Source of the DNA: a virus
IMG/VR virus record: IMGVR_UViG_3300036761_001580
Coordinates: 133,198-197,197 of that record
Strand: one strand, 5' to 3'
DNA: 64,000 nucleotides
Of this stretch, positions 1,533 through 63,689 are shown piece after piece. Made by a program: the position numbers and the translations under genes. The notes beneath the pieces are model-generated. The model worked only from the letters and a program-made list of their open reading frames with translations, was not told where the DNA came from and did not search any database. How positions within the stretch are numbered: position 1 is the stretch's first letter; each line of letters opens with the position of its first letter.

Positions 1533-1533
1533 C

Positions 1534-1719: not shown

Positions 1720-1723
1720 CGCC

Positions 1724-1960
1724 CTACTCCTTGTCCTTGGGAAGAACCTTGCGCTCTACCACAAGGCAGCTCTCTTCGACCTCGACCTCAAACGTCGGGA
1801 GAATGATGGTCAGAACACCCTTCACGAACTCCTCGTTGCAGTTGAAGTACAACTGCATGTTCTGAACCATCCCCAGCGCCTCTCCAGAAGGGCTGATGAT
1901 CTTGGTGCCATTGCTCGTACCGTCCGAAACGATCTTCCACTTCTTCATGGCCTCAACCAT
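1724..1960 (-). CDS. hypothetical protein, 78 aa
   Basis: Track ORF filling the gap between flanking genes on the coding strand. Composition is not Arg/Gly-rich. 8-nt overlap with the upstream gene. Confidence 0.35.
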   Translation of the reverse strand: MVEAMKKWKIVSDGTSNGTKIISPSGEALGMVQNMQLYFNCNEEFVKGVLTIILPTFEVEVEESCLVVERKVLPKDKE

Positions 1961-3080: not shown

Positions 3081-3352
3081 GCTCGGGCACTTTCCGACCG
3101 CGGCATCGCGGACGTGTTGACCATGGACACGAACGTGAGGAGCACCGGATAGAGCTTCCGAACGAAATCCTGAAGCTCCACGAGTGAGTCCTCCAGAGAA
3201 GACCCTGAGGTGACCCTCGGGGACGTCTTCAGGAAGCGCAGCACGAGGTACTCACACAGCACGTCCACGTCCTCCAGTAGGAATTCATCCCCGAGGCACC
3301 CCAGGGCCTCACGAACAACCTCCCGGTACCTGTTCTCAAGCGGCGGTCGCAT
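3077..3352 (-). CDS. hypothetical protein (~92 aa, start trimmed to internal ATG)
   Basis: The track ORF 3077..3490 has an Arg-rich N-terminal part that overlaps the RecA C-terminus out of frame. The internal M (MRPPLENRYREVV..) at 3352 removes most of the overlap. Confidence 0.35.
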   Translation of the reverse strand: MRPPLENRYREVVREALGCLGDEFLLEDVDVLCEYLVLRFLKTSPRVTSGSSLEDSLVELQDFVRKLYPVLLTFVSMVNTSAMPRSESARA

Positions 3353-4391: not shown

Positions 4392-6178
4392 TGTCGCATC
4401 GGCGGACCACCGGCACCCTCAGCGGGAGGGGTCGGAGCCCTGTCCGGAGGCGGCGGAGCGAAGCCGGGCACCACCCCAATCGGCGGAACCGTGCCCGGAG
4501 GCGGCACGGCCGGAGGCTGATTCGGCACCGGGGCCCCACCGTACGACTGCTGGGGCGGCTGCATGTTCGGCGGCGGAGCCATGGGCGGCATGCCCTGCGG
4601 GGGGGCTCCACCGGCCATGGGAGGCGTTCCCGGAGGCATCTGCCCTTGGGGCTGCCCGTACTGCTGCGGAGGCTGCTGAGCCGCGGGAGGCGCTCCTGGG
4701 GGCATCCCCGGGGGCATTCCCTGAGGCGGCTGCCCGGGAGGCGTACCGTACTGCTGCTGCGCCGGGTACTGCGGAGCCGGGGCCTGCTGGATCGGAGCCA
4801 TGCCCGGGTACGGAGCCGACTGCGGAGCCTGCGCCGGGGGAGCCTGGTAGGGCATCTGCTGCGCCGGGGGCTGGGCCTGGCCGTACTGGGGCTGGCCCAT
4901 CGGGGGCTGTCCCGGAGGGGCTCCCAAGGGATTCGAACCCGGGGGCAGACCAGCAGGCATGCCCGGAGGAGGCATTATGGGCGTCTGGCCGGCGTTCCCG
5001 ACCGGAGGATACCCCGTAGCACCTGCCCAGCCGGCTGCCTGAGGGCTGCCCATGGGAGCGCCGTACGCGGGCTGTCCCTGCGGAGGCTGTCCCTGCGGAG
5101 GCTGTCCCTGCGGGACGATCCCACCGGTCATCTGCTGCTGTGCCTGCTGGTAGTCGTTCCCCGCGGACTTCGTCTGACTGACGTAGTGGAGCCCCTCTTC
5201 GTAGGTGACGAGGTGAACCAGCGTCTCCGTCGGGTCGACCAGCGCGGCGTAGTTCTGGATGTACGCGATCCACTCCGGCGAGTACTGGAAGAACCTGTTG
5301 TTGAACACGGCATCGTACTCCGTGTCGCGCAGGTTGTTCTTCTTGCACTTGCTCGTGTCCTTCACGATGGAAATGATCGGGAACCCGCTGGGCGTGTTCT
5401 CGAAGAACCGGAGACCTTGCGGAGCCCCACCGGACGCGGCCCCGCCGTCGAACAGCCGAAGCAGCTTCGAGTGCACCGACTTCGGAGCGAACCACGCCTG
5501 GTGCAGCGTGGCCGGGTCATCACCCTCGCCCAGGGGACGCGCCCCTACGAACTTGTCGTGATCGAAGATCGCCAGGAAGTACTTGTCCTGGGCACCGATG
5601 TCGCGAGCCGCCCTCTTCGTCACCGACAAGACCGGATCCCTCGTGCACATGTCCCGGTAGCCGTCCGCCGAGAGGGCCTTCTTGTCGATCCCGAGAGCCT
5701 CCCACCGGGCATTGAAGAGATCCCACTGGCGCTGTGACTCCTCGCAGTGTGCGCAACGCACGGGCTGCTCGAACAACGGACCACGGCCCAAGGACTCCTG
5801 GAGGTACTTGTTGATCCCGATAGGGCAGAGCACCGAGGCGAAGCCCGTCGATCCGTCCGGCCGACTGAACTTGTCGACCTGGTGGATCGGGAGCTTGAAG
5901 TAGAAGGTGTAGATCGGGTTCGACGGATCGAGACCCACCAGAGTGGACCCGGGGATGGGAGCGCACATGCGGTACTTCCGACGCATCTCCTCCGTCGGGT
6001 TGAACATCTTCCAAGCGTGCGGGGTGAACAGTGGGAGGAGCACGTTGTTGAAGTGCACCATCCCTTCCTTGTTCGGAAGTGGACGCCACAGCTCCTTCAC
6101 GAGCGGGCCCTTTCGGTCCTCGTTGTCACGCTCTCTCTGATACGGCATCGAAAACTCGCCCATAGGCTTCCTCCTCAC
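4385..6178 (-). CDS. putative ssDNA-binding protein (tentatively gp32-like Zn-binding N-terminal domain) with a ~270-aa Pro/Gln/Gly-rich low-complexity C-terminal region
   Basis: 597-aa ORF. The N-terminal ~330 aa is globular with candidate metal ligands MCAP..H..CPIG..RCAHCEE. The C-terminal half consists of PQGQPPQGQPPQGQP-type repeats, encoded in part by 15-nt tandem DNA repeats at 5071..5115. It sits between recA and other replication genes where an SSB is expected. The assignment is inference only. Confidence 0.3.
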   Translation of the reverse strand: MRRKPMGEFSMPYQRERDNEDRKGPLVKELWRPLPNKEGMVHFNNVLLPLFTPHAWKMFNPTEEMRRKYRMCAPIPGSTLVGLDPSNPIYTFYFKLPIHQVDKFSRPDGSTGFASVLCPIGINKYLQESLGRGPLFEQPVRCAHCEESQRQWDLFNARWEALGIDKKALSADGYRDMCTRDPVLSVTKRAARDIGAQDKYFLAIFDHDKFVGARPLGEGDDPATLHQAWFAPKSVHSKLLRLFDGGAASGGAPQGLRFFENTPSGFPIISIVKDTSKCKKNNLRDTEYDAVFNNRFFQYSPEWIAYIQNYAALVDPTETLVHLVTYEEGLHYVSQTKSAGNDYQQAQQQMTGGIVPQGQPPQGQPPQGQPAYGAPMGSPQAAGWAGATGYPPVGNAGQTPIMPPPGMPAGLPPGSNPLGAPPGQPPMGQPQYGQAQPPAQQMPYQAPPAQAPQSAPYPGMAPIQQAPAPQYPAQQQYGTPPGQPPQGMPPGMPPGAPPAAQQPPQQYGQPQGQMPPGTPPMAGGAPPQGMPPMAPPPNMQPPQQSYGGAPVPNQPPAVPPPGTVPPIGVVPGFAPPPPDRAPTPPAEGAGGPPMRQW

Positions 6179-44467: not shown

Positions 44468-45247
44468 CTACTCAAGCTCATTGAAGAATTGGGTCCCCAA
44501 CGAGAGTGAAATGTACCTAAAAATATCATCCATGGATGGCATCGTCTCCGTCGCCACGAAGCTGAACGAGTAGTTCTTACTAAACGGGTTGGACGCATCG
44601 TCCGTGAATTCCAAAACCCGGTCAAAATACCCAATGAATGTAATCATGGCGTTACCTAAGATAGGGCTCGTATACATAAAGTAGGACTTATTCGGAATTC
44701 CGGAAAACGGATCTATCACGGGTTCCCGCGTCATGCTGTATAGATTCCAGAAGTTCAGCAACTTCGAAGCACCCGCCAAAGTCTCTACATCAAGGCCCTC
44801 CTGCTTCGTCTGCGATTTCAAAAAGTCACGGAGCCTCTTGGTCTGCTTGGAGACCACACTGTTTCGTTGCATCCCCGTCCTGATATTTATGTTCCCCGTA
44901 CTTCCCGAGAACGCTATATTGATAACGTCGTTGTTCCGACCCTTCGCATTGGTCCAGTGAAAAAACACCGCGCCAGACTGAGTGTCCCTCCTGGTGATCC
45001 TCTTGTTCTGCGTAAAGGTCACCGTCTCGGGGTTCATCTTCATACGCACAGGATCGATGTCGTTCCGAGTCCTGTGATCCGAACTGAAGACAAAAGGAAC
45101 CCGGTAAGACACATCCTCGTAGGGATTAAGAATTCGCTCAAGTATACGCTCAGCAGAAGGGGCTTGGATCCCATTGCTAGTACCGAAGGCCTCCATCATG
45201 TTCTTCCAAAATTGTTGCTTCGTAATAGCCATGTATACACCTATCAA
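44468..45247 (-). CDS. tail protein, 259 aa (unassigned)
   Basis: Track ORF directly downstream of the tape-measure paralog cluster. Confidence 0.45.
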   Translation of the reverse strand: MIGVYMAITKQQFWKNMMEAFGTSNGIQAPSAERILERILNPYEDVSYRVPFVFSSDHRTRNDIDPVRMKMNPETVTFTQNKRITRRDTQSGAVFFHWTNAKGRNNDVINIAFSGSTGNINIRTGMQRNSVVSKQTKRLRDFLKSQTKQEGLDVETLAGASKLLNFWNLYSMTREPVIDPFSGIPNKSYFMYTSPILGNAMITFIGYFDRVLEFTDDASNPFSKNYSFSFVATETMPSMDDIFRYISLSLGTQFFNELE

Positions 45248-45265: not shown

Positions 45266-48001
45266 CTATTGAAATACGGCTTCGCCCTCAACCCGTTTCC
45301 CCGTCTCTTTGTCCCACATACCTCCTGCGATGGGGACAACCAGACCTCGGCCCTTTTTCCAACCAGATCCGCTTTCATGCCCACTACCTGTGGGGCGGTG
45401 GATGAACCTCGTAGCCCCCTTCGTCCAGTCTCCAGTACCCTTATCCCCACGAAGAATGCTACGCGCGAAGTCTATGGTCTCCGGATCCGGACGGGCTCCT
45501 GAAGCAAAATTCCTTCTGCCGGCCTTCCCGTACTTCTTGTTCCCAGCATCGCTCGCTCCCCAGCCCTTCTCGGCAGTAATGGCCTTCGCGAGCTTACCCC
45601 CTCCACCCTTTTTGAGGCCACCTACGCGGTTCAACGCAGTCCAAGCGATACCCAGCTGTTCCTTTCTACGGTCATCTCGGTACCTGCCGGACTCGCTCTG
45701 AATCATCCGTGCCAGAGCCTCCACGTCCTCACTGGTAAAAGAGCCCTCTTTGGACAATTGCATACTAGAGAACGTCCCTGGAGCGCCTCCGTAACCGCTG
45801 ATATTGGTGAAATCGAACCCGCACCGAGGACAATTTCCCGAGATGAGGATATTGATGCTCCCCTCGGCATCCACACTCTGCACCTGAAGATGCAAACCCC
45901 CGCCGACCCATTTGTCACCCCAGTCCTGAACAGAGCCCGCCTTGGTGCCCTTAGAACCCTTAGAGGACGAAGCTCCAGGAACAGGTCGAGGAGGTACGAT
46001 GTCCTGAGTGAAAGGAGACCCCTTCTCCAGATCAGCAGCAGGGATGTTGATACCCCCCAAGACCGGAGTACCGCCGCCTTTAGGAGATTTGGACAGAGAG
46101 CTAGACCCATACGGATCGTAGTCCCAAGCCTTCTTCAGGGCCTGCAACGAGGGCCCCATGATGTCACTCGCCATACCCTTGGCAGAGGCAATCATCTGGT
46201 CGAGGCCGCGTCCCATCTTTGCTTTGTTCTTCCCCTGGTTGCCCAGGAGGTTTTCAATATCTTGCGCCAGCTCACTTTGTGCCTTGGTGTTAAAAGTAAT
46301 GGCGTTGACAATGAACTGCGGCATGGCCTTGAGGTATGCAATAAGGTATGCCAAAGCGGTAATGACGTATCCCATCAACCCTTGACCAAAGTTAGCCAAA
46401 CCCTTCAACCACTTGTTCATCATGAGTTCGAACTTGCTTCTTTTCTCTGCCTCCGTATGAAACGAGTTCTTCAGAATGGTGATGTTATCCTTCGCTGCTT
46501 TCGCGGCTTGAACCATATTTCCTTCGCGAGCGTGCTTCCCAATAGTAGCAATCAAACGGGCCCCCTCAAACCCCAGGCCCATAGAGGCTTCCATGAAGTA
46601 CCGGGCTGCATCTTCATCTTCCCCAGTAGCCTTCATCGCCATGTCGTAAATGGTAGTCACAATGTGAACGACCTCATTTGTGTCCTCCCCATCAAGAACA
46701 CGCAAGAAGGCGTCCATCATCTTCTGTCTCGCTTCCAAGCCCTTCCCGTACCCCAAACGCTCTCCCAGGGCGACCTTCCAGTTGTCACCCATCTTTGCCA
46801 CGCCACCAGCGAACTGTTGAAGACCAACGGCCGCCTGCTTCCCGGCAAACTGCTTGGGCACCCCCATCTTCGAGAAGGCATCCGTAACGTGCACATAGAT
46901 GTCCACTACGTTATCAATATTATAGCCCATCCGAGCCAACTCGGAACTAGCGTCCTCGACGTTCTTCACAAACTGCATAGCACCCACACCAGAGTCCCGA
47001 CCGACCATGTACATGCGGAGAAGGGAATCCTTCGCCTCATCAGCCGTCTTCCCATAATCCGCCATCATGCCGACCATCCGCTTCGCGCTCTCCCCGCCCG
47101 GAAGTTCAAACATCTTATCCAAGGCAAGAGTCACCGTCACCGCGTTCGATTCCACATCCTTGAAGACTGACTTCATCGGAGACATCATCTGGGAGACGCT
47201 GAAGCCTCCGTCAACGAACGCCTGCGCGGTAGCCTGGATTTCTTCACGTTGGATGCCCAAGAATCTCTGGAAGGTTTCTTGAATCGCAGACAACCGGGAA
47301 GTACCTTTTGCGAGCGCTCCCTTGACGCCGTCATCGTATGCTGCAATGAGAATATTTTTCATCTCTCCCGACTGGGCACGAACACGGTCTCTATCCATGT
47401 ACCCGTAAGCCATGATGCCAATGAATCCCGCCACGATAGCCGCGGGCTTGGGTATCTTCAACTTCGACATCATTCCGCCGATCCTACCCTTGACAGTCCT
47501 CACTTCTGAGGTGAGGTATCTTCCGATAGGGCCGCGCTTTTTCTTCTTCCCCTTGGATCCTTTGGAAACGACCCCTCCTTGAGCCGTACCCCCTCCAAGG
47601 CCGCCCCCAACGCCCTCACCATCGTCACCCTCAGAGGGTGCAGTAGCCTCCGTCACCGCGGCCTCTGCCCTCTTGGAGAGGCTCTCAAAGCCCTGCTCGG
47701 CACCAGTTATCGCCCCCCGCATCCCCTCGAACACGGAATCGAACTCTGCTGAAAGACCGCTGAACTTACCTGCTATGGAACTGATGTACTCCTCGCTGGC
47801 TCCGATGGCTTTCGCGCCTTCCAGCAATCGAGGATCACCCGATATTTCGTCAATAGTTGCCTTGAAGCCCTCTCGCAAGCTGTCCAACAGCGAATCGAAG
47901 GACTCGGTGTTGGCACGAGACATATCTGTAATTGCAGCACCAAGATCCGTAAATCTGGTACGGGCCTCTTCGAGCTGCTGGATGTCAACCAATCCACTCA
48001 T
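45266..48001 (-). CDS. tape-measure-like protein, paralog 3 of 3, with C-terminal SleB/Hydrolase_2-like cell-wall hydrolase domain
   Basis: N-terminal coiled coil. TM-like segment AAIVAGFIGIMAYGYM followed by the conserved RVRAQSGEMKNIL box shared with the two upstream paralogs. C-terminus CPRCGFDF...EDVEALARMIQSESGRYRDDRRKEQLGIAWTALNRV resembles the SleB-type hydrolase core (LAR.I..E..GE....AV..V.NRV). Confidence 0.65.
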   Translation of the reverse strand: MSGLVDIQQLEEARTRFTDLGAAITDMSRANTESFDSLLDSLREGFKATIDEISGDPRLLEGAKAIGASEEYISSIAGKFSGLSAEFDSVFEGMRGAITGAEQGFESLSKRAEAAVTEATAPSEGDDGEGVGGGLGGGTAQGGVVSKGSKGKKKKRGPIGRYLTSEVRTVKGRIGGMMSKLKIPKPAAIVAGFIGIMAYGYMDRDRVRAQSGEMKNILIAAYDDGVKGALAKGTSRLSAIQETFQRFLGIQREEIQATAQAFVDGGFSVSQMMSPMKSVFKDVESNAVTVTLALDKMFELPGGESAKRMVGMMADYGKTADEAKDSLLRMYMVGRDSGVGAMQFVKNVEDASSELARMGYNIDNVVDIYVHVTDAFSKMGVPKQFAGKQAAVGLQQFAGGVAKMGDNWKVALGERLGYGKGLEARQKMMDAFLRVLDGEDTNEVVHIVTTIYDMAMKATGEDEDAARYFMEASMGLGFEGARLIATIGKHAREGNMVQAAKAAKDNITILKNSFHTEAEKRSKFELMMNKWLKGLANFGQGLMGYVITALAYLIAYLKAMPQFIVNAITFNTKAQSELAQDIENLLGNQGKNKAKMGRGLDQMIASAKGMASDIMGPSLQALKKAWDYDPYGSSSLSKSPKGGGTPVLGGINIPAADLEKGSPFTQDIVPPRPVPGASSSKGSKGTKAGSVQDWGDKWVGGGLHLQVQSVDAEGSINILISGNCPRCGFDFTNISGYGGAPGTFSSMQLSKEGSFTSEDVEALARMIQSESGRYRDDRRKEQLGIAWTALNRVGGLKKGGGGKLAKAITAEKGWGASDAGNKKYGKAGRRNFASGARPDPETIDFARSILRGDKGTGDWTKGATRFIHRPTGSGHESGSGWKKGRGLVVPIAGGMWDKETGKRVEGEAVFQ

Positions 48002-48002
48002 G

Positions 48003-50297
48003 CTATGGTGTCCCCATCCTTGGATTCAACGTCGGGTACTGCTCCACCTGAGACTGTAACACAGCATTTCCCAAATCTTCTGTAGATATTGGGGGCTGGG
48101 CCGGATTGATCACTGGGCCGGAAGAGGCCCCCACCGCAGGCTGTGCGGTGCGTTCTCGCGCTTTCGGATCATCCGCTCCTACGTTCCTGGTGACCAATAC
48201 ATTGGACAATGCGGTCGCCACTGCCCCGCCGAGAATACCCGTCGCGGAGACCAACTTGAAGTGCTTCTCCGCAGGTCCTTGCAGACCTGTCCCCTCCAGC
48301 AACTCCTCCTCATGACGAAATCTCTTCTCCTGTTCGGCTTCGGGATCTCCAAAAACACCACCCCACGAGTCCTTAGGATCGGTCTTCATCCCTCCAGGCA
48401 GTGGTGGCGGAGGGGGTGCCTTGGGATCCCAGCGCATAGCTCCAATAGCGGGAGCGAGAGAGTCCCCAAACTCCTTCCCTAAGGCCGTCAGAACTCCATC
48501 CGTACCCTTCAACATCAGGTCCCACCCATCGGCCATATTTTTAAAAACCTGACGATTCGCGTAATACATTTTCAACTTGAGTCCATAAGCAGTGCGGCCC
48601 CCCGAGCCCTCTTCACCCTGAATCATCATAGACTTCAATCCGAGTATGCAAGCCGCGATGAGAGAAACCAATATCGCCATAAGACCAACCCCGATGTTCG
48701 ACATGGAAGTAACCAGCTCACGACGGGTCTTAAACAACTCGGAAACCATCTTTCCTTCCGTAGTAAAGGCCTGCTTCAGATTAGCGCGAGCCTCCTTCGA
48801 CATACTTTCCAGGGTATCACCCTTCTCTAAGATCCCCAAGGTATCGACCAAGATCGCCGCCGAACGGTTACTCGTTCGTAGGTTCTGCTGCACGGCCAAG
48901 ATCGCCTTACTTCTTTCAGGAGTCGTTCTCTTAATAACCAGAGTCCCGTAAGAACGAATGAGAGACTCCAAAAAGCTCTCGTCCTTCCCGGAAGAAATCC
49001 TACGAAGACCGTCACTGAACCGAATAAGAAGCTCATGTGCATTCGATTCAGTATCTTTGAAAATGTCTCTCGCCAAGGCCACTTTCATTTGGTCATCCAT
49101 CTTCGTGAACGCCGTCATGAGGTCCACAGCGACCCCCTCCACCTCACGGCCGGCGTACTGGGACTCCAAGCCCATGCTCGCGTAGTGTCCTAACAACTTC
49201 TCCACGAAAGAACCAACGGTCTCTGCGTTGATGCCCATATTTGAGAGAGGATCCGCAGCAGCCATGACGATACGAGTAAAATTACTGACCCCTATGGAAC
49301 TCCGCTCTCCCGCAGCGGTCATCTTTACGGTCAGATCCGCCGCAGAGTTGAGTGACATCCCGTAATCACGAACTAGGGTTACGATGTTCTCCATCGATTC
49401 CGATGTAGAAAAGTTGTAATGTTTTCCCAACCCAAGAGAGAGGGTAATAACGTTGTGCCCTACACGCCCCAGACCCTTATCGTAGCGCCTCAAAGCGTCA
49501 GTAGCAGAAAATCCATTGTCTACCATCACCTTGGCAGCAGCCTGGACCTCTTTACGACCCACACCCCAGTACCACTGCGCCCGCTCACCCCAATTCGCAA
49601 ACCAACGAGTAGCCTTCCGTCCCGCAGCAGACATGACACTGTCTACACTGCCCTCGAAAATGTTAGCCATCTCCCCCATCTCGGCACGACGTCGATTATG
49701 CTCCGTGTATCCGAGAGCAATAGAACCTATAACAGCACCAAGAAATCCTGAAGAAAGCTGACCAGGGATGTTACTCAAGATACTCTTAATTTTGTCCTTG
49801 GTCTTCTTCATCTCCTTTTCAACAAACTCAATCAGCCTGGAAGTTCTCTTCTTATGCCTCTTGACCATCTCCTCGGCAGAGGTAACAGAAATGTAGATTC
49901 TGGATTCCGCACCATCGAGCTTCTGCTCTGCTTTCCGAGGATCTATTCCAGCTAAAGAAGACTCCTGAACCTGCTGCACCGCCGCCGATGCGGTGTCCGC
50001 AGCGCCAGCCCCCTCTTCGGAAGGTCCAATATTCTCAAAAACCCCTTTGAGGTCACCGACACTACGAACAGCACCATCAATAGCACCCTTGATGCGCTCA
50101 GCCTCCGCAGAAAAAGCAACAGCAGGAGAGGGCATAGAAGTAGGAACGGATGCAGACGCCAAGGAGCCCAGAGAGACCTTCATGTCACGGCCCAGGAGTT
50201 GTACTGCCGAGCCCAGGTCCGTGTACGTGCGGTGTACAGAATCAACCTGGTCACTCAGGTCCGCAAGATCCAGGTCTATCAAAAAAGAGTTCTCCAT
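48003..50297 (-). CDS. tape-measure-like protein, paralog 2 of 3 (764 aa)
   Basis: Shares the GFLGAVIGSIALGYTEHNRRRAEMGEMANI box, AQWYWGVGRKEVQAAAKVMVDNGF and HYASMGLESQYAG motifs with the flanking paralogs. Helical, with a second TM-like stretch (IGVGLMAILVSLIAACILGL). Confidence 0.65.
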   Translation of the reverse strand: MENSFLIDLDLADLSDQVDSVHRTYTDLGSAVQLLGRDMKVSLGSLASASVPTSMPSPAVAFSAEAERIKGAIDGAVRSVGDLKGVFENIGPSEEGAGAADTASAAVQQVQESSLAGIDPRKAEQKLDGAESRIYISVTSAEEMVKRHKKRTSRLIEFVEKEMKKTKDKIKSILSNIPGQLSSGFLGAVIGSIALGYTEHNRRRAEMGEMANIFEGSVDSVMSAAGRKATRWFANWGERAQWYWGVGRKEVQAAAKVMVDNGFSATDALRRYDKGLGRVGHNVITLSLGLGKHYNFSTSESMENIVTLVRDYGMSLNSAADLTVKMTAAGERSSIGVSNFTRIVMAAADPLSNMGINAETVGSFVEKLLGHYASMGLESQYAGREVEGVAVDLMTAFTKMDDQMKVALARDIFKDTESNAHELLIRFSDGLRRISSGKDESFLESLIRSYGTLVIKRTTPERSKAILAVQQNLRTSNRSAAILVDTLGILEKGDTLESMSKEARANLKQAFTTEGKMVSELFKTRRELVTSMSNIGVGLMAILVSLIAACILGLKSMMIQGEEGSGGRTAYGLKLKMYYANRQVFKNMADGWDLMLKGTDGVLTALGKEFGDSLAPAIGAMRWDPKAPPPPPLPGGMKTDPKDSWGGVFGDPEAEQEKRFRHEEELLEGTGLQGPAEKHFKLVSATGILGGAVATALSNVLVTRNVGADDPKARERTAQPAVGASSGPVINPAQPPISTEDLGNAVLQSQVEQYPTLNPRMGTP

Positions 50298-50304
50298 ATG
50301 TTCC

Positions 50305-52671
50305 CTAAGGAGGAGGTACCCTCTGCGCCTCCGCTTTGTTAGACGCTGTTTTTATAAGACCTCCATCAACCTTGGCATTCGCGCCACCAACATTCTCAGG
50401 CATCTCTGTCTGGTAGTCATCATACTCTGGTGAAGCATTTTCTTTAGCCCTACCCTTATACCGGGCCTTCTCAACAGCGGCGAGCTTATCGGGAAGATCC
50501 TCAGCCGCCACGGCAGCGTCCTCCCAGGAATCATGAGAATCCAGAATAGCTTGTTCCGGATTTTCATTAAGAGATCTCCCAAAAGAAGAAGAATTAAGAT
50601 CATACAACTTGCGAAGAAACCAAGCCTTCACATGTGCGTACCCTTGCGCTGCTTGTATATCTAGCTGCCTCTTGAACTCTTCATCCGTAAACATCTGCAA
50701 AAAGTCATCCTTCAGCTCTTTGAGAGCAGCTTTCGCCTCTGCTGCGGAGGTTATAGTCTTAACGCCACCCTCCGATGGAGCGTCCCATTTGAGGACATCA
50801 ATTATGGGTTGAAGATCATTCTTGAACTCCGTCTTCATCGCCGCAGCAGCATCTTTAAGACCAGTGTTGGCCGCATCAATGCCGGCACTCATACTATCGC
50901 CCAACTTGTCGTATTGAGCCCTAATATCCACAAGAAACTTTTTGTCGCCAGTGGGTAAGGCAGCGGCAATAATCTCCGGAAGATACTTGATGCTGAGTAC
51001 AATGGCCCCTACCAAACCTGCCAAGACCTTCAGGAGGCCCTGACCAATGGCAGAGATCGCATTAGTAAGATCTCTTGTCAGCTTCGCAAGATCAGAAATC
51101 TTCTCACTCTCAGTAGAAAGAGCATTTTTAATGAGCCCTTGCTGCTCAACAGAAAGCTCCGAGAGCTTGTTACCCTTCGCCAACTCGGTAGTCGCATCAT
51201 ACAAGCCGGCAGCTGTCCTGTTGTCACCGATCTTGGACTCTATGAGGCGAATCGCCTGCGCCCGGGTCTTGCCTCCTTGAGAGGCCCACTCCCTCAGAGA
51301 AAGAAGTGTCCGAGTAACGAAGTCCTCGCTGCCGGACTGACGCGCCCTCTTGAAGCCGTCCTCCCATTTCTGCCGAGCATCCACGCCTGTCAGCTCGGGG
51401 AACATCCTCTGAGCTATCATGGCTTTCATGGAAGGGTCCATCCCCGCAATCCCTTGTGAGATCCCGTTGATGAAATTAGTCGCCTGGTTTCCTGCGTACT
51501 GGGGGCTGAGACCCATCTTCTCGTAGTGCTTCTGGATGGTGCCCATGATTCCGGCAACCTCGGCCACGTCGACACCATACTGCTGCATGGCAGAAGCCCC
51601 GGAAATGATGGTATCTGTGAACTTGCTGATGCCCATGGCGCTCTTCTGACCGGCAAACGCGATTCTAGAATACTTGTCCGTCGCCTCCTGCAAGCTGTCT
51701 CCCAAGGACGTAGTAATCTTGGTGATGTTGCTGATAGAGGTCCCGGTATCCTGGTTGAAGTGTTTATCCAACGCGATGGACATGATACCGACATGCTGGC
51801 CCGCAGCACCCAGGGATGAATTGAACGTAGCCATGATCTCATGGGCCTTGTAACCGGCGTCGACCATGGCCTTCAGAACACCTTGAGTTTCCTCACGGGA
51901 GATGCCGTAGTACCACTGCGCAGTCTCCTGGAATTGGGAAAACCACGATGTTACCTTTCTAGACGCATCGGAAGATATAGCTTCTCCCGAAGCCTCAATA
52001 ACATTCAGCATCTCCCCTTTCTGTGCCTTGAGCCGGTCCCTCTCCGTAACCCCTAGAACCATCGCTGCAAGGAGCCCAGATACTACACCCCCACCCAGAA
52101 TCCCTCCAGGAACGTGGCTTGCGATCTCCTGCGCCTTGCCCGCAGCTGCTTCCAGCTCGGACTCCAAATACTTTTTGACACGGTTCACATCCTCTTCAGA
52201 CTTCTTATCCGTGTCAGCGACAACTCGAATAACGTTCTCAGCGTTCTCTTGGGCAATCTCAACGGAAGCACCTGCAAACGCAGCACCTTCCAGCATGACA
52301 ACCACCTGGCTCTGAGCCTGCTCCATCGCCGCCCCGGAGGAACCCGACGCCGGGCCCCCAGAAGCCTTCATCCGAGACACTTCACTGGCGATCTTAATGC
52401 CGTGCTGAGAAACGGTATTCAGCATCTCCGAAAAAGATCCAGTGCCCTCCTTTATGTGCTGGATGGAACGCTCCATCTGCGGATTCAACGAACCGATCAT
52501 CGTGGTGACGCTCGACGCCCGGGTCTGCAACGTGTTGAGATCCCCCGAAACCGCAGAAACAAGGGCCCGCAACGACCCGCCAAAAGCCGTGTAGGACTTA
52601 GTCGCCTCCGAGATCTGGTCTCGGAACTTGTCGAAGTCCCACCGCAACAAATATGATTCTACCTGAACCAT
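50305..52671 (-). CDS. tape-measure-like protein, paralog 1 of 3 (788 aa), in the canonical TMP position after the G/G-T chaperones
   Basis: Shared boxes GLLAAMVLGVTERDRLKAQKGEMLNVI, AQWYYGISREETQGVLKAMVDAGY and HYEKMGLSPQYAG. Immediately downstream of the frameshifted chaperone pair. Confidence 0.7.
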   Translation of the reverse strand: MVQVESYLLRWDFDKFRDQISEATKSYTAFGGSLRALVSAVSGDLNTLQTRASSVTTMIGSLNPQMERSIQHIKEGTGSFSEMLNTVSQHGIKIASEVSRMKASGGPASGSSGAAMEQAQSQVVVMLEGAAFAGASVEIAQENAENVIRVVADTDKKSEEDVNRVKKYLESELEAAAGKAQEIASHVPGGILGGGVVSGLLAAMVLGVTERDRLKAQKGEMLNVIEASGEAISSDASRKVTSWFSQFQETAQWYYGISREETQGVLKAMVDAGYKAHEIMATFNSSLGAAGQHVGIMSIALDKHFNQDTGTSISNITKITTSLGDSLQEATDKYSRIAFAGQKSAMGISKFTDTIISGASAMQQYGVDVAEVAGIMGTIQKHYEKMGLSPQYAGNQATNFINGISQGIAGMDPSMKAMIAQRMFPELTGVDARQKWEDGFKRARQSGSEDFVTRTLLSLREWASQGGKTRAQAIRLIESKIGDNRTAAGLYDATTELAKGNKLSELSVEQQGLIKNALSTESEKISDLAKLTRDLTNAISAIGQGLLKVLAGLVGAIVLSIKYLPEIIAAALPTGDKKFLVDIRAQYDKLGDSMSAGIDAANTGLKDAAAAMKTEFKNDLQPIIDVLKWDAPSEGGVKTITSAAEAKAALKELKDDFLQMFTDEEFKRQLDIQAAQGYAHVKAWFLRKLYDLNSSSFGRSLNENPEQAILDSHDSWEDAAVAAEDLPDKLAAVEKARYKGRAKENASPEYDDYQTEMPENVGGANAKVDGGLIKTASNKAEAQRVPPP

Positions 52672-52674
52672 GCT

Positions 52675-53957
52675 CTACTTCATCACATCCAGAGTCACCA
52701 CGGGACGATCATCTACCTTAGGAGTGGGCTTGCTCAGGCCTAGATCCACCTCTTCCAACTCCGGCGCTCCTTGAGGTTCAAGAACCTTCTTGCCATACTG
52801 GTTTTTTATATCTGAACGAACCCTCCCAATAGTTCTTGCACTCTTCTCCACAAGGGGATCATCTCCAAGATCATCCTTGGATAACACGAGGTTCTCCAAG
52901 AGCATCTGCGTGTCGCGTCCGCCCCAATTCATGGCCTTGAGGAGGTCTTCCGGAGCGTTTTCGAACTCAACATCCCCCTCGTCCTTCATGAACGCTTCCA
53001 GCGCCTCAGGAGTCAGCTCCGCGACTCCGGTATTAACAGTCACTCCGTCCTTGCGAGCAACATCAGCGACTTCCAGCTGCTGAAGAACTTCCTGCTGGTT
53101 GATGTACTCTTCCGTCCTACTTTTTATCGCTGCCAGGACATTATCGTTTCCGATAAGAAGCACGAGAGGCAGACACTCCTCATCCCCCGGAAGACGTAGC
53201 CTTCCAGTTCTTTCGTCTTCGACCGGAAGCAAGTTCAAACCCAGCATGGAGACCACTTGCTTCCTCACAGCCTCAGAAATAGTCCGGATGTCGTCATAGC
53301 GTTGCTTCTCCTGAAGGTTCATCGACTCCAGCTCAAAAATCCACTGGGTATCGTTCATTCCTTTCAGCCGAGGATCCCCTAACGGGATCATCCTCTTGGT
53401 CAGGACCTTCGCCTTGATCCTGAGCTTCGCTACTAGCCTTCTCCAGATGGGGTAGATTCGGTCCCAGTGGGCTTCTCGCCCTTCTCCGAACCCACCCCTG
53501 AGGATTTTTTTATGTTGCCCTGGGCGGCCTCCCTGCGTTCTTCCAGAGCCTTCCAGTATTTCCACAGGTCTTCCAGCATCTCCGGAGGCCTCGCGCCCAG
53601 CCACTCCATCATGTGCTCGGCAGAAAAATACTTCTGCGTGAAGGTGCCTTTGCTCTCCACAAGACGGAGAAGGTTCCGCCCCTCTTCGGTCTCCTCCCAT
53701 TGAGAACGGAAGAACTCGAAAATGGGGACACCATCGACCTCGCGAATACCGATAGAGAGCGTCGGGAGCCTCCAGGAGGTGACGGTGGACAACCCGCTGC
53801 CCATGTTGATGAAGCCATTCCTCCAGTTGGACTCCTCCTCGTTCAGAAGACGAATTCGGAATTTCCGGCCCTTCCAGGTAAACACCTCCTCCAGGCACTC
53901 ACCGTCGAGTTCCTTCGCGAGGTCGTCCAAGATTCTTTTCGGATTGTCCGTCGACAT
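52675..53957 (-). CDS. tail assembly chaperone G-T fusion product made by -1 programmed ribosomal frameshift at A_AAA_AAA (53511..53505)
   Basis: The G frame (53957..53433) and the -1 frame (track ORF ending at 52675) overlap by ~70 nt. The zero-frame codons read AAC ATA AAA AAA TCC, giving a classic X_XXY_YYZ heptamer A_AAA_AAA. After the slip the -1 frame reads KKILRGGFGEG...MIPLGDPRLKGMNDTQW.. through to the stop at 52675. The gene pair sits between the tube and tape-measure genes, as in nearly all long-tailed phages. Confidence 0.6.
53433..53957 (-). CDS. tail assembly chaperone (gpG-like), 174 aa
   Basis: Track ORF directly between the tube genes and the tape measure. Contains the slippery heptamer near its 3' end. 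Confidence 0.6.
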   Translation of the reverse strand: MSTDNPKRILDDLAKELDGECLEEVFTWKGRKFRIRLLNEEESNWRNGFINMGSGLSTVTSWRLPTLSIGIREVDGVPIFEFFRSQWEETEEGRNLLRLVESKGTFTQKYFSAEHMMEWLGARPPEMLEDLWKYWKALEERREAAQGNIKKSSGVGSEKGEKPTGTESTPSGEG

Positions 53958-54012: not shown

Positions 54013-54618
54013 CTACATCAACCGTCGCATCTTTACATACACTAAAGTGGCATTAACGAGTATTAAACGGTCTCCTTGGGCTTGCATTACCCGTCCGAGA
54101 CTCGTAAACCAGCAGCCCGTGTACCAATTCTTCTCAACCGTGACTTCCTGGCCCGCTCCGGCACGACCAATGTCGATCCCTTCAAGCTCGTTCGCAGTTC
54201 CAAGGCCCAAGGCCTTGCCGAACTTCTTCGATCCGATCTTATCCAACAACGAAGAAGTTGTGACCAACTCCATGCCCGGAATCAGAGGCTTTTCCTTCGT
54301 TCCGAACTTGATCCACTTCTCTTCGATATCGATAGGATTGTGCTGATCCGTCAAAGCCCACAACGGCTTCGGCATCCCCCAGATCTCTTCCATCTTCTGG
54401 GTGTAGAGATCATACCGAGTCACCTGGAGGGTCTGTGTGGTCGCCACTCCCGGGACGGCCTCAATGGGCGCTCCGGTCCCGACCGCATTGATCTCGAACT
54501 TGAGCTTAACGTCACGAGCCTGACTTGGGCTCCAATTCTGAATCCTCCCTATGGTCACGTCCGCTGCACGGAGCGTTATAGCATGACTTGTTCGGAGTTC
54601 AGTGCGTGGTACAGGCAT
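54013..54618 (-). CDS. tail tube protein, paralog B (201 aa)
   Basis: N-terminus MPVPRTELRTSHAITLRAADVTIGRIQNWSP.. and C-terminal GCWFTSLGRVMQAQGDRLILVNATLVYV are colinear with paralog A. Position after the sheath gene. Confidence 0.65.
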   Translation of the reverse strand: MPVPRTELRTSHAITLRAADVTIGRIQNWSPSQARDVKLKFEINAVGTGAPIEAVPGVATTQTLQVTRYDLYTQKMEEIWGMPKPLWALTDQHNPIDIEEKWIKFGTKEKPLIPGMELVTTSSLLDKIGSKKFGKALGLGTANELEGIDIGRAGAGQEVTVEKNWYTGCWFTSLGRVMQAQGDRLILVNATLVYVKMRRLM

Positions 54619-54623
54619 GGATC

Positions 54624-55070
54624 CTACGTCATCTTTGTACAGTTGACGTACGCCAAGGTAGCGTTGACGAGCACGATCCTGTCACCTTGGGCCTGCATGT
54701 TGCGTCCGAGTTGAGAGAACCAGCAACCGTAGTAAACGAAGCTCTCATTCAGCCCAGGACTCGACCACTTCTCAGTGATTTCTAGGGGGGTGAGCTGATT
54801 TGAAAGCATCCACAAGGCCGCCGAGGTACCCCAAACCTCTTCCATCTTGGAGGTGAACAAGTCGTAGCGGCTCACCTGAATGGTCAGACCCGTGATGTTG
54901 CCCGGAACGTTCTCAGTCACAGTTCCAGAACTCTCAGAACGAAGCTCATACGCTGGCGTAATGGTCTTCGACTGGGTTGGAGCCCACGTCTGGATCTGAC
55001 CGATAACGGTTCTACCCGCGCGAATGGAGATCGCATGGCTAGTACGAATTCCTGTGTTAGGGACTGGCAT
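54624..55070 (-). CDS. tail tube protein, paralog A (148 aa)
   Basis: MPVPNTGIRTSHAISIRAGRTVIGQIQTWAP.. with GCWFSQLGRNMQAQGDRIVLVNATLAYV. Directly downstream of the sheath gene. GGAGGAGG SD upstream. Confidence 0.65.
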   Translation of the reverse strand: MPVPNTGIRTSHAISIRAGRTVIGQIQTWAPTQSKTITPAYELRSESSGTVTENVPGNITGLTIQVSRYDLFTSKMEEVWGTSAALWMLSNQLTPLEITEKWSSPGLNESFVYYGCWFSQLGRNMQAQGDRIVLVNATLAYVNCTKMT

Positions 55071-55095
55071 CTGCTATCCTCCTCCCCTACCCCTG

Positions 55096-57600
55096 CTAGG
55101 CGGGGCTGAAGAACGGGTTGTCGACCGAGTACTCACCGAAGAACCGCTTGGCCGGATACTTCAGGTTGTACCAGTACTTGAAGTAGAAGGTCCTGGGATC
55201 AGTCGTAGACTGATACACCACGATGTCCGTCGTGGCGTCGATGTCCCGCGGCAATCCTGACGGGTCGCGGTAGGACGCAATCGAGCCGTTGTTGATGTTC
55301 GCCGTGATGCCGAGCAAGATCCACTTCTTGCAGTCCGAAATGAAGTCGCTCAGATCGTCCGGCACCACACCGATGACGTTGCTCGCGAGCAGCGTGTCGA
55401 CGGTCTTCGTGACCGCGTCCTTCTGGGCGCTGGAGGCCGGCTCCTCGAACTGCACCACCTTGGCACCGCCGGCCTCGGTGGAGATCGGGTCGAGCATGAC
55501 CAGCCGGCCGGCATCGAGCGTGACCACGAGGACGCCCTTGTCCGCCAACGTATGCCGCTCGCCGCGGAGGTACGTCCCGAAGCCCTCGGTCTTGAAGCCG
55601 GTGATGAACTTCCCGATGAGCGCCGACGAGGGGCTCGGGAGAGCCGTGTAGACCGACGCGACGGCGACCGCGATGTAGGTGCCATCCACGTTGAGATCGA
55701 TCTCCTGACTCGTATCGAGCTTGATGGTGCGAGTCGCATCACCCGGAGAGACCAGGAACAGACGCCCGCGGCCCGGAGAGGTGTTGCCCGGCTGCAAGGT
55801 CTTGGTCGACCGATAGACGAAGGTGTTCGGCGTGTCGGGGTCCCCGACGTCCGTGCCCCGCGCCATGCCGAACCAGCCGCGCCGGTAGTGCTTCTCCAGC
55901 ATCGACGACTGGTCCGCGACGTGCAGCATCTGGTACACCGCAGTGTCGAGCGCAGTGTCGATGGTGACGACGTCCGTGACGGTCGAGTACTCCTTCGCAG
56001 CATCGAGCGCGGAGTTGATCTCCAGCTGCGTCGGCGTGCCGGGGGCCACCGAATCGTTGATCTGGAAGAGGTACACCGAGGAGACGCCGTTCTCGAACGC
56101 GATCTCTCCTGCCACGCAGAGCTTGTTGACCAAGTAGTTCTGCATCGTCAGCTTGGTCGTGTACTGGTAGAGCTGATCCGGATCGTACACACGGTGTCCC
56201 GTCGTGTAGTCCGTGGCCGGGCGGACGTAGTCGTACGTGCAGTAGTAGTTCGTCCCGAACGCCGGTCGCTTCCCGGTGCCCTGGGCCGTGTAGGGCAGCG
56301 TGATCGCGCCGAACAGCGTCGTGAAGGCGTTCGCAGCGGTCGCCCGGAACTGAATCGAGCTGGCGACACCCTTCTCCGGGAGGTAGTTCTCGAAGTCGTC
56401 CGGGCACCGGATCCGCACCGTGTTGCCCACGACGACCGCCATGTGCGAGAACTCCGGGCCGTACGCACTCGCAATCGAGGCCAGCGCGGCGTTGATGTCC
56501 GCGGCCACAATCGCCGGAGTCGTCGGAGCGCCCGGGGTCAAGGTCACGAGGACCTGGGTGCGGTTGTTGATGGACATCAGGAGCTTGTCGTTGGTGGCCG
56601 CCACGATGGTCGGCGGGAAGGCGACGAAATCCAACGTGGTCGCCGTCGCCTGCAACCAGGTCGTCACATCCCAGTCGACATCGTTGGCGATGCCAACTTC
56701 GTAGTCCGTGTTCTTCGTGTAGTCCACACCGCCCGGGTACGAGCCGAGGTAGTTGATGTCCGACAGAGGGGTCGAGGTGCCGGCATTCGTGAGAGCATCG
56801 GTGAGGATGTCGACCGACACGTAGTCCAGAGTGTAGACGGCAGACGACGTATACGCCGCGTCGAACACCTGGAGGCGCGTCGGCGCTTGGACGCCGGCAC
56901 CGACCGTCGGCGTCCATGCCGCGGTCGAGATCGTGGACGCTCCGTCGAGCGCCGCGTTCGGGGAGATGAACACCTTCACGTCGGAAGCAGGCTCTGTCGA
57001 GGGGGACGTGAGGGTGATGATCTCGTTCACCACACCCACGGCGTGGGTCGCCACGGCAGCGTAGGTCAGACCGTAGATCAAAAAGAACGGCCCGAGCGCG
57101 TTCGCCAGAGCGTAGTTGATGGCGTTGCAGATGTTCGTCGGAGTCGCAACCGCAGCAACACCGCCGACCAGAGGTACCAAGGTGTTGAAGTCCAGCGTCA
57201 CGGCCCGCTTCCCGTCGAGAGCCAATGTGAAGTACGGAGTGCCGGTCGCCAGGGAGACGTCCACCGTCACGCCGGCCCACTCGGTGCCCACCAGACGCGC
57301 AGCCAGGAACTGCCAGTCCGAGAGCCCCAGCGGGTTCCCATTCATGTAGATCTGGGCGCTGTTCCTGGACCTGTTCGAGGTGTTCGCCAAGGTTCCTACG
57401 TGAGGAGACCCGACGGTCAGCGTCAGCGTCTCGTCGTAGATCTTCCCACGGGTGACCGGCTCGTCCACGCTTCGACGAGTGCGCGGAGCGATGGCGAGGA
57501 TGCCCAGTGTGCGTTCGGAGGTGACGGAAACCGCACCAGGGACAATCACTTCCGCGATGTACACGCCTGGATCGACATATTTCGAAATGCTGATTGCCAT
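55096..57600 (-). CDS. contractile tail sheath protein (834 aa)
   Basis: N-terminus MAISISKYVDPGVYIAEV is a typical sheath start. Large size. Followed by tube and chaperone genes. AGGGAGG SD 10 nt upstream. Confidence 0.75.
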   Translation of the reverse strand: MAISISKYVDPGVYIAEVIVPGAVSVTSERTLGILAIAPRTRRSVDEPVTRGKIYDETLTLTVGSPHVGTLANTSNRSRNSAQIYMNGNPLGLSDWQFLAARLVGTEWAGVTVDVSLATGTPYFTLALDGKRAVTLDFNTLVPLVGGVAAVATPTNICNAINYALANALGPFFLIYGLTYAAVATHAVGVVNEIITLTSPSTEPASDVKVFISPNAALDGASTISTAAWTPTVGAGVQAPTRLQVFDAAYTSSAVYTLDYVSVDILTDALTNAGTSTPLSDINYLGSYPGGVDYTKNTDYEVGIANDVDWDVTTWLQATATTLDFVAFPPTIVAATNDKLLMSINNRTQVLVTLTPGAPTTPAIVAADINAALASIASAYGPEFSHMAVVVGNTVRIRCPDDFENYLPEKGVASSIQFRATAANAFTTLFGAITLPYTAQGTGKRPAFGTNYYCTYDYVRPATDYTTGHRVYDPDQLYQYTTKLTMQNYLVNKLCVAGEIAFENGVSSVYLFQINDSVAPGTPTQLEINSALDAAKEYSTVTDVVTIDTALDTAVYQMLHVADQSSMLEKHYRRGWFGMARGTDVGDPDTPNTFVYRSTKTLQPGNTSPGRGRLFLVSPGDATRTIKLDTSQEIDLNVDGTYIAVAVASVYTALPSPSSALIGKFITGFKTEGFGTYLRGERHTLADKGVLVVTLDAGRLVMLDPISTEAGGAKVVQFEEPASSAQKDAVTKTVDTLLASNVIGVVPDDLSDFISDCKKWILLGITANINNGSIASYRDPSGLPRDIDATTDIVVYQSTTDPRTFYFKYWYNLKYPAKRFFGEYSVDNPFFSPA

Positions 57601-58872: not shown

Positions 58873-59370
58873 CTACCCTCTTCGACCGTTCTTGGCCTTC
58901 AGCTCGTTCTCCATGTCTTCCAAAGCATCGTAGTACGTGGAAAATTCCTCAACGTGATCAGTTGCGATTTCCTTCGCGATGTCCGGATCGTCCGTGTGCT
59001 CCATCTCGACCTTGATGCCCTTCAGGAGCTGCTCCATCGGGAGGTCCTCGTCGGGAACATCGTCGGCCTTGCCGCCGGGGATCAGGTCCTCCGAGTCCGG
59101 ATCGTTCGACTCCACGTAGTCCGTGGCAAGCTCGTACAGGAGGGCCTCGATGTCGTCCACCTCGTAGCCATGCTCCTCAGCCCAATCGTGGACCAGCTCG
59201 TCCTCGGGGTTCGGATTGTCCTTGAGGAACTCGACCAGCTCCTGCTTGATGTCCTTGTCCGATCCACCCTTGTCCGAGTCCTTCTCCTCCTCGGGCTCAT
59301 CCGTAGCTCCGTAGATCCGACCGAGCCGGCTGAAGCCATCGTCCGAGATCCCGCCAGCGTTGCGTCTCAT
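58873..59370 (-). CDS. highly acidic protein, 165 aa
   Basis: Asp/Glu-rich throughout (EEKDSDKGGSDKD..DDIEALLYELATDYVESNDPDSEDL..). Could be a scaffold or decoy-type protein. Confidence 0.45.
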   Translation of the reverse strand: MRRNAGGISDDGFSRLGRIYGATDEPEEEKDSDKGGSDKDIKQELVEFLKDNPNPEDELVHDWAEEHGYEVDDIEALLYELATDYVESNDPDSEDLIPGGKADDVPDEDLPMEQLLKGIKVEMEHTDDPDIAKEIATDHVEEFSTYYDALEDMENELKAKNGRRG

Positions 59371-59864
59371 GGTACCATGCCTCCTGGCGCGTTACCGCCA
59401 GCTGCCTTCTTGAACTCTTGGAAAAGCTCCTCTTGGTATGCGTAGCCGACGTTGGCCGCCGTGTTTTCAAAAGCCTCGTACATCTTCTGCTTCAACGCCG
59501 CAACGACATCGTCTTCGATCTTCTGCGCGTAGCGCTGCCTCAGGCCCTCCCAGACACTGGGATCAGGGACAGGGAACCCCGCCGCGGTAACCGCCGAGTT
59601 CATCTCTTCGATGAGCGCCTGGAACCGCTCATCGAAGTAGTCCATGGCGTGCTCCCCCGCGTTATTGAAAGCCTCGGTGACGTCGCTCTCGATGACCCAT
59701 ACTGGTCTAGAAAACATCTGAAGAACCTTCATCCCGGAGCCCCACAGGAGGTCCTCCACCGCGTCCCCCGGGCTCCACTCCTCGGTGTCTTGGTAGTTCT
59801 GCGCCCTCTTCTGAAGGAACACCGACAATCGCTGAGCTGCCTCTGGGGTGATGCCTTTTTTCAT
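59367..59864 (-). CDS. hypothetical protein, 165 aa
   Basis: Track ORF, tight operon spacing (4-nt overlap). Confidence 0.45.
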   Translation of the reverse strand: MKKGITPEAAQRLSVFLQKRAQNYQDTEEWSPGDAVEDLLWGSGMKVLQMFSRPVWVIESDVTEAFNNAGEHAMDYFDERFQALIEEMNSAVTAAGFPVPDPSVWEGLRQRYAQKIEDDVVAALKQKMYEAFENTAANVGYAYQEELFQEFKKAAGGNAPGGMVP

Positions 59865-62943: not shown

Positions 62944-63309
62944 TCAGTACCCCAGCTTCTTGAACCGCTTCAGCTTCTCCTCGGCGGAGAGCGTCGGAAC
63001 CTCTTCTCGAACCTCGGCGATCTTCCCATTCAGCTCGGTGACCTGGTTGGTGAGGTCCTCGATCTCGCCCTCGGCCACGGTCTCCTTCGCCTTGATGCCG
63101 GTCTTCTGGCCTTCGAGCTGGTTGATCTCACCCTCCAGGAAGGCGACCTTCTCCTTGCGCTTCTGGATCTTCTCCGGGATGGGTGGAGGGTCTACGCGAC
63201 CCTTCGCGATGCGCGCACCCACGATAAGCGCGACAACCACCGCCAGGCCGGCGACGATCCACTTCCAGTGGGCTTTCACCCACGCCCAGATCTTCCCCAG
63301 GGTCTTCAT
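62944..63309 (-). CDS. i-spanin (Rz)-like protein: N-terminal TM + periplasmic coiled coil, 121 aa
   Basis: WKWIVAGLAVVVALIVGARI TM segment, followed by a Pro-rich linker and a charged coiled coil. Confidence 0.4.
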   Translation of the reverse strand: MKTLGKIWAWVKAHWKWIVAGLAVVVALIVGARIAKGRVDPPPIPEKIQKRKEKVAFLEGEINQLEGQKTGIKAKETVAEGEIEDLTNQVTELNGKIAEVREEVPTLSAEEKLKRFKKLGY

Positions 63310-63689
63310 TTCACTTCGCCCTCAGGGCCTGCCGGGGGCTCCATAGCCTCTACCGAAGTGGATGCCGCGTTGCCGGTCTTCATCTCGATCTTCTGCCGCA
63401 AGGTGTTGTTGCTCACGAACGTGCGTGTGATGGCACCGTAGATCACCGAGGACAACGTCCCCAACGCGCCACCGACCATCAGCTTCGAAGCGAGAGTCTC
63501 CTGCGGGAGAAGAAGCCCACCGATCATGCCCAGCATCAGCGGGAGAAACGGCAGGATCCTCATCCCGAGAGGCATCTGAAGAAAGAACTTCTTGAAGGCG
63601 AGCTTCAAGGACTGCACGATTCCGGCGACGATGACCGCCAGCGCGACGTAAGGACCGTACTCGATCAAGAGGTTGAGAATGTCTTCCAT
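63306..63689 (-). CDS. holin-like small membrane protein (3 predicted TM segments), 127 aa
   Basis: Three TM-like stretches: YVALAVIVAGIV, ILPFLPLMLGMIGGLLL, LMVGGALGTLSSVIYGAI. Charged C-terminus. Confidence 0.4.
   Translation of the reverse strand: MEDILNLLIEYGPYVALAVIVAGIVQSLKLAFKKFFLQMPLGMRILPFLPLMLGMIGGLLLPQETLASKLMVGGALGTLSSVIYGAITRTFVSNNTLRQKIEMKTGNAASTSVEAMEPPAGPEGEVK

Follow-up and report, generated by a model that had tools for sequence, protein, structure and literature searches.

A tandem pair of tail tube paralogs, one minimal and one decorated, in an uncultured jumbo phage

Introduction

Why would a phage with a contractile tail carry two tail tube genes side by side? In every contractile tail solved to date, to our knowledge, the trunk is made of one protein, and tube-fold relatives are found only in terminal rings. 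The question is raised by a 64,000-nucleotide stretch of the IMG/VR virus record IMGVR_UViG_3300036761_001580 (positions 133,198 to 197,197; hereafter the window, to which unmarked coordinates refer). On its minus strand, two tandem genes follow a tail sheath gene: tubeA (54624..55070), encoding a minimal tail tube protein of 148 aa, and tubeB (54013..54618), encoding a decorated tube paralog of 201 aa (stop codons included in both cases). An earlier reading of the sequence, referred to here as the original prediction, described the two genes as duplicated tail tube genes, held such a pair to be uncommon, and proposed either that one copy is specialised as a tube initiator or terminator or that the tube is heteromeric.

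The tandem pair itself is not new, having been published for Bacillus phage G, and contractile systems routinely use tube-fold paralogs for their terminal rings. The present analysis adds that such pairs occur widely and repeatedly in a group of uncultured jumbo phages, that they always associate a minimal copy with a decorated one around a single hot-spot loop, and that the translation signals of the two genes are strongly asymmetric in the clade of the window. Our analysis favours, with a probability of about 0.45, a tube made of tubeA, with tubeB as a specialised ring of low copy number at the baseplate end.

Results

Both open reading frames (ORFs) are present exactly where they had been placed, with the tubeB ATG located 5 nt past the tubeA stop codon. 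BLASTP aligns the two proteins with 74/200 identities (37%, E = 1e-47) and a single gap of 53 residues. The original prediction had relied on shared ends (MPVP.T..RTSHAI... and GCWF..LGR.MQAQGDR..LVNATL.YV) and had left room for a resemblance confined to them. Both motifs are indeed found, and the similarity spans the whole core, beyond these terminal peptides. The insertion of ~50 residues announced for the middle of the second copy corresponds to the gap, at tubeB residues ~106-158. Codons are identical at 37 of the 76 residues identical in tubeA and tubeB, where codon usage alone predicts 34.5; synonymous sites are therefore saturated. Hence, the duplication is old and the shared peptides are held by selection at the protein level. 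For the window, recent gene conversion is thereby ruled out as the source of the identical terminal peptides. A readthrough or frameshift fusion of the two genes was also considered, but the frames differ and no support was found.

The N-arm, β3, β6 and β7 are common to the tubeA and tubeB groups. Positions that are conserved but different between the groups lie in the long hairpin, while conserved positions specific to tubeB border the insert. At the level of sequence, the shared elements and the saturated synonymous sites argue that both copies are constrained to retain tube-type contacts.

Both proteins match PHROG 985 (“virion structural protein”), tubeA over its full length (E = 9.1e-6) and tubeB over its N-terminal half (E = 7e-4). 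The AlphaFold2 model of tubeA, calculated with a family alignment of 30 sequences, is a β-sandwich with a short helix pair (mean predicted local distance difference test score, pLDDT, of 72), in which the long hairpin formed by residues 34-60 is poorly determined. The tubeB model has the same core and strand order, with a pLDDT of only 59. As modelled, the proteins thus display the β-sandwich or half-barrel core, the protruding long β-hairpin and the flanking helix of the tail tube superfamily (Hcp / lambda gpV-N / T4 gp19 fold). In BFVD, the top structural match of tubeA is phage G gp179, and its structural neighbours include T4-type gp3 proteins (“tail completion / head-proximal tip of tail tube”). 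Pfam returned no match for either tube protein, for the sheath or for the neighbouring gene products; neither tube protein matched PF23980 (Phage_tail_tube_init) at E <= 1, and a precomputed PF26461 tag on three homologs was not reproducible. When PDB sequences were searched, both the protein and the family profile retrieved only spurious matches to cytochrome c oxidase subunit 2, and the sheath ORF had no PDB sequence match.

The tubeB insert (~53 residues; 54145..54303, minus strand) replaces the tight β4-β5 turn, between predicted strands 96-105 and 159-172. In an alignment by hidden Markov models, tubeB has 52 additional residues following tubeA position ~108. The insert is of low confidence in AlphaFold2, essentially unmodelled except for one short helix (residues 122-128). 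Assigning it to a ring face by strand topology was attempted and dropped, the last strands possibly being one kinked strand. Identity falls to 20% in the insert as compared to 53% in the core. The insert is rich in small residues and of low complexity (G/A/S/L-rich), above all in the clade of Virus Rctr197k, and no hydrophobic transmembrane-like segment was detected in that of the window tubeB. Across the family, the β4-β5 turn is the main insertion hot-spot, with 10-64 additional residues in ~42 of 173 full-length representatives.

A search of 5.8 billion proteins yielded 58 relatives that fall into two clean size classes, ~148-157 aa and ~199-211 aa, with the insert at a constant alignment position. 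Both classes co-occur on the same contigs, and relatives on contigs of 180–212 kb carry the pair. A family profile search extended the set to 341 cluster representatives at 50% identity. Close relatives of the window in IMG/VR (L003-L015) all encode sheath, short tube, long tube, chaperone and paralogous proteins resembling tape measure proteins (TMPs). More distant loci (L016, L018, L019, L022, L023, L024) have one tube gene only, of the tubeA type (149-153 aa), while L017, L020 and L021 have two copies, the second being decorated differently from the window tubeB. Five further decorated representatives were checked, and in 5/5 a shorter family member lies directly upstream. In L044 (3492..5105; JGI 3300041086 Ga0452216_000201), three genes of the tube family are arranged in tandem (165, 188 and 181 aa); a β4-β5 insert and a C-terminal extension are found in the second, and an N-terminal extension in the third. 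The same arrangement is found in two annotated phages, Virus Rctr197k (067/068) and Bacillus phage G (gp179/gp180). The arrangement described in the original prediction is thus real but, given these relatives, not unique, and the interpretation offered with it is supported in part.

Two observations concern individual relatives. P0010 and P0052, on the 17.8 kb contig of L005, are deposited as part of an “Archaeoglobales archaeon” metagenome-assembled genome (DRP01_02165/02170), a label that is probably due to mis-binning. The closest named virus, Rctr197k (KX853510), comes from a DAMO/AAA anaerobic methane-oxidising enrichment.

Every multi-copy lineage has precisely one minimal copy, which resembles the single-copy tubes, and all its other copies bear an appendage. 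In the window clade, 53-69 residues are inserted in the β4-β5 turn; at this turn, the Rctr197k clade has a Gly/Ala/Ser-rich stretch of ~55 residues and L021 has ~25 residues. L017 and L020 have in common an amphipathic C-terminal extension of ~22 residues, and phage G gp179 has an insert in a different loop together with a C-terminal tail. Within the window clade, identities among tubeA proteins (67-71%) and among tubeB proteins (58-72%) both exceed those between the two (44-64%), which indicates one duplication at the base of the clade. The tubeB group of the clade is monophyletic in a neighbour-joining tree (77% bootstrap), and tubeB orthologs are intact ORFs across at least 15 diverged sequences. 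Between lineages, second copies resemble each other no better than they resemble first copies, and identities are highest among first copies. A single ancient duplication common to the window, Rctr197k and phage G is therefore unsupported. In the same tree, whose deep nodes are poorly supported (bootstraps of 2-35%), paralogs cluster by genome in L021 (92%) and phage G (91%), and weakly in Rctr197k, L017 and L020.

Judged from these sequences, the simplest reading would be that duplication happened independently several times and that, in each case, one copy then evolved faster and became decorated. Although the second copies of L017 and L020 have homologous C-terminal extensions, each clusters weakly with the first copy of its own genome; some concerted evolution of the cores is possible in lineages other than that of the window. 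Single-copy tubes are usually nearer to the minimal copy, as with L019 (57% identical to the window tubeA versus 44% to tubeB). Because the single-copy relatives are of the tubeA type and closer to the minimal copy, tubeA appears to retain the ancestral essential role, tubeB being the faster-evolving copy. A related observation was made in L018 (IMGVR_UViG_3300037067_013058), where a single tube gene accompanies two tandem sheath genes (608..3451 and 3539..5971), both ~55% identical to the window sheath. Together with the tube duplications, it indicates that this phage group repeatedly duplicates its major tail genes, different genes being affected in different lineages.

Such a history raises the question of whether tubeB is a fixed structural layer at all or rather an accessory or variant subunit. 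It could be a decoy or substitute directed at host tube sensors, a host-specific tip modification whose Gly/Ala-rich loops act on membranes, or an assembly factor that virions do not contain. A duplication that is recurrent, lineage-specific and sometimes lost, a copy number varying from 1 to 3, and a poorly conserved, low-complexity insert would all suit this explanation. However, the tubeB clade has stayed intact over deep divergence with conserved residues of its own, both phage G paralogs are virion proteins, the window insert is devoid of a transmembrane-like segment, and there is no defence-related context. We therefore consider a dispensable paralog very unlikely.

The two genes differ markedly in their translation signals. 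tubeA is preceded, 6 nt before its ATG, by the Shine-Dalgarno (SD) sequence GGAGGAGGA (55077..55085, minus strand). The energy of the duplex with the anti-SD is -12.1 kcal/mol for tubeA and -11.8 for the sheath gene, as compared to -4.0 for tubeB. The sheath and tubeA sites of the window are among the strongest of the structural region, and the tubeB value is similar to those of the TMP-like genes (-4.0, -5.8), the gene of a 259-aa protein (-6.2) and the baseplate genes. In 10/10 loci of the window clade, the SD GGAGGAGG, kept as GGAGG(AGG), precedes tubeA at -10 to -12 kcal/mol, while tubeB starts 5-20 nt past the tubeA stop with an SD of 0 to -5 kcal/mol. Taking SD strength as a proxy for copy number, the weak tubeB site points to a low-copy product. 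tubeA is very likely the major tube protein, and tubeB is probably a low-copy terminal ring rather than a co-polymer.

This asymmetry also bears on the second proposal of the original prediction, a heteromeric tube. In such a tube, tubeA and tubeB would polymerise together over the full length of the tail, in mixed hexamers or in rings of alternating type, and the insert would decorate either the tube-sheath interface or the lumen. A tubeB essentially without SD next to a near-perfect tubeA site, in every window-clade locus, argues against a ratio of ~1:1. In addition, related phages with the same sheath use one tube protein, and a 53-residue insert on every second subunit would need to fit under a 1:1 sheath lattice. 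The long hairpin is a lateral intra-ring contact in known tubes, and the divergence of tubeA and tubeB in this hairpin fits separate homohexamers better. On the other hand, the N-arm and C-terminal strand motifs are nearly identical in both copies, both phage G paralogs have been detected in particles, and phage G, Rctr197k and L021 have decent SDs on both copies. The solved Hcp2-Hcp3 heterohexamer (PDB 9vnd) also demonstrates that mixed tube rings can exist. On balance, a heteromeric tube is unlikely, and of the two original proposals the weak SD and the decoration favour the specialised terminal ring.

Two annotated phages can be compared with the window. Phage G is the largest cultured phage. 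Its sheath gene, two tandem paralogs, chaperones (G/GT pair) and TMP gene are in the same order as in the window, and gp179 and gp180, which are 38% identical (E = 1e-39), likewise comprise one longer, decorated copy. Both belong to PHROG 985, and tubeA matches gp180 with E = 2e-13 (BLASTP), although phage G proteins are only ~25-31% identical to those of the window. The within-genome clustering noted above suggests that the phage G duplication is independent. Unlike in the window, the decorated copy comes first, its decoration lies in other parts of the protein, both tube genes have good SDs, and both proteins carry N-terminal extensions of ~40 residues that the window proteins lack. The pair was published as “two tail tube candidates” with their roles left open (PMC8570332), and gp179/gp180 were later listed as “tail tube subunit 1 and 2”, both found by particle proteomics (bioRxiv 10.1101/2024.12.16.628780). 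Our literature search found nothing after 2021-2024 settling the roles of these paralogs.

Rctr197k is the closest annotated phage record. A sheath-like gene (065) is followed by an inserted HNH-like gene (066), the tube genes 067 and 068 (168 aa and 210 aa) and, as in the window, a homolog of a 174-aa ORF described below; all genes of the tube region are annotated as hypothetical. The longer tube protein carries its insert in the same β4-β5 turn, but the insert is unrelated in sequence to that of the window. Its core is 42% identical to the window tubeA and 33% to tubeB, so that 068 is not clearly a tubeB ortholog. The SDs of both copies are comparable, unlike those of the window. Rctr197k_066 (L001 7220..7951) is a Cys-rich ORF that separates the sheath gene from the first tube gene, and Rctr197k_064 (L001 3425..4312), just upstream of the sheath gene, is annotated as a homing endonuclease. 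Selfish elements thus appear to target the highly expressed tail module of this phage.

The window also encodes a candidate tube initiator, possibly an outer or second layer, in the form of the 259-aa protein (44468..45247, minus strand), downstream of the TMP-like genes. It matches PF23980 weakly (E = 0.005; 17 bits, below the gathering score of 27), but 8/10 members of its family match this profile, the best with E = 2.5e-5. The gene is present in single-tube and two-tube relatives alike, and hhalign detected no relationship between this family and the tube family (probability 0.2). In solved contractile machines, two initiator layers are common. A small, close tube paralog (Cis1b, Alg5, Pvc5; phiKZ gp88) is uppermost, and beneath it a larger protein made of a barrel plus an extension (Cis7, Alg7; phiKZ gp182) grips the wedges. 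Since such two-layer initiators with a small tube paralog as first layer are documented by cryo-EM, the initiator-like 259-aa gene is compatible with a role of tubeB as an initiator layer. In single-layer initiators (Pam3 gp17, Mu gp43), the tube barrel bears an extra, largely helical element that touches the wedges. The minimal-versus-decorated pattern mirrors the way in which these initiators differ from their tubes, which supports tubeB as a specialised ring; the likeness of a minimal core with an appendage is greatest for the amphipathic C-terminal extensions of L017 and L020. As modelled, tubeB is a tube-fold protein distinct from the major tube protein, as expected of an initiator ring.

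These parallels have limits. The Pam3 gp17 and Mu gp43 genes come after the TMP gene and their products have no recognisable sequence similarity to the respective tubes, whereas the window paralogs are adjacent and 37% identical. Their appendage is a C-terminal domain, and that of tubeB an internal loop insert. Cis1b+Cis7, Alg5+Alg7, Pvc5+Pvc7, T4 gp54/gp48 and phiKZ gp88+gp182 have no detectable sequence relationship to tubeB. Finally, tubeB adjoins the tube gene and is not found among the baseplate genes, unlike the two-layer initiators.

A specialised ring could also sit at the opposite end. As the last head-proximal ring, tubeB would be a T4 gp3-like terminator or an adaptor to tail-completion proteins, its insert stopping further addition of tubeA and binding the neck. 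The tube fold of tubeB, its altered loop and its gene of low-copy type would be suitable, the gp3-type proteins among the structural neighbours of tubeA indicate that terminators can be tube-fold relatives, and the libraries used revealed no terminator upstream of the sheath. However, all solved close tube paralogs found (Cis1b, Alg5, Pvc5, gp54, gp88, Pa193 gp37) are at the baseplate end, and competing with abundant tubeA at the neck would require a length-sensing trigger. Moreover, the actual terminator could be encoded among several small unannotated genes that lie upstream of the sheath (58873..59864). A position at the neck hence seems improbable.

The genes surrounding the pair are those of a tail module. 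On the minus strand, the order is sheath, tubeA, tubeB, a 174-aa ORF at the chaperone position, and TMP-like ORFs. The sheath gene (55096..57600, 834 aa), immediately upstream of tubeA, is syntenic across all related loci, and BLASTP relates its product to phage G gp178, annotated “tail sheath” (25% identity, E = 2e-17), and to Rctr197k_065 (37% identity, E = 6e-133). This sheath match, the PHROG 985 matches and the tube-fold models bear out the description of tubeA and tubeB as tail tube genes following a sheath gene. The 174-aa ORF (53433..53957) is 26% identical to Rctr197k_069 (E = 8e-15); from its position in the syntenic order only, we infer a putative tail assembly chaperone. A long ORF downstream (52675..53898, minus strand) overlaps it in another frame and may be a frameshift product or a second chaperone. 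Overlapping frames are usual for the G/GT pairs of tail assembly chaperones produced by programmed frameshifting. At this position, two separate genes of ~180 aa each are called in the relatives L041 and L048.

Three consecutive TMP-like ORFs follow at the tape-measure position (50305..52671, 788 aa; 48003..50297, 764 aa; 45266..48001, 911 aa; all on the minus strand). All three are paralogous to one another (26-28% identity over 400-655 residues, E = 1e-38 to 1e-71) and each contains a hydrophobic Gly-rich segment; the first two stay together in almost every related locus, single-tube loci included. They could form a heteromeric tape measure or be ejection proteins derived from a TMP. The baseplate genes downstream of them include one for a gp6/J-like wedge protein.

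Some other features of the window were noted. Two small minus-strand ORFs, 63306..63689 (127 aa) and 58873..59370 (165 aa), have SDs of -12.5 and -10.3 kcal/mol, respectively. As these are as strong as those of the sheath and tubeA genes, the two ORFs may well encode additional virion components of high copy number, for instance a decoration or neck protein. Compared with L003 (sheath at 3471..5972), the sheath is 99% identical, tubeA 84%, tubeB 89%, the ORF at the chaperone position 80% and the first TMP-like protein 58%; this mosaicism suggests, from the sequences, a recombination breakpoint at the sheath/tube junction. The window has ~58-60% GC, no tRNAs, and all its genes on one coding strand.

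Discussion

The arrangement that we favour can be put as follows. tubeA would polymerise as stacked hexameric rings inside the sheath. tubeB would be an old, neofunctionalised duplicate that has kept the tube fold, the N-arm and the C-terminal strands in order to mate with tubeA rings. Made in small amounts, it would form a specialised hexameric ring at one end of the tube. The likeliest site would be the baseplate end, where tubeB could serve as the first adaptor or initiator layer between the 259-aa protein, together with the hub, and the first tubeA ring. Its position would be analogous to that of Cis1b/Alg5/Pvc5 above Cis7/Alg7/Pvc7, or of phiKZ gp88 above gp182. The β4-β5 insert may then be a docking element for a partner other than the tube; a wedge, the sheath initiator and the hub are candidates. 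Weighing against this arrangement, Rctr197k, L021 and phage G lack the SD asymmetry.

The contrary outcome, a two-component tube in this jumbo-phage lineage and in phage G, with the insert as a periodic layer facing the sheath or the lumen, appears unlikely. If it were true, the repeated independent duplications would represent convergent two-component tubes in very long tails.

For the family, which comprises phage G and hundreds of metagenomic relatives, the data show a tube gene that has been duplicated repeatedly, apparently independently, with decoration of one copy. If the decorated copy is an adaptor ring, these phages would provide a natural series of initiator layers arising by tube duplication, at 37-68% identity. 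For phage G, this predicts that the minimal-like gp180 is the trunk protein and the decorated gp179 a specialised ring. If instead both copies build the trunk, this would be the first two-component phage tail tube.
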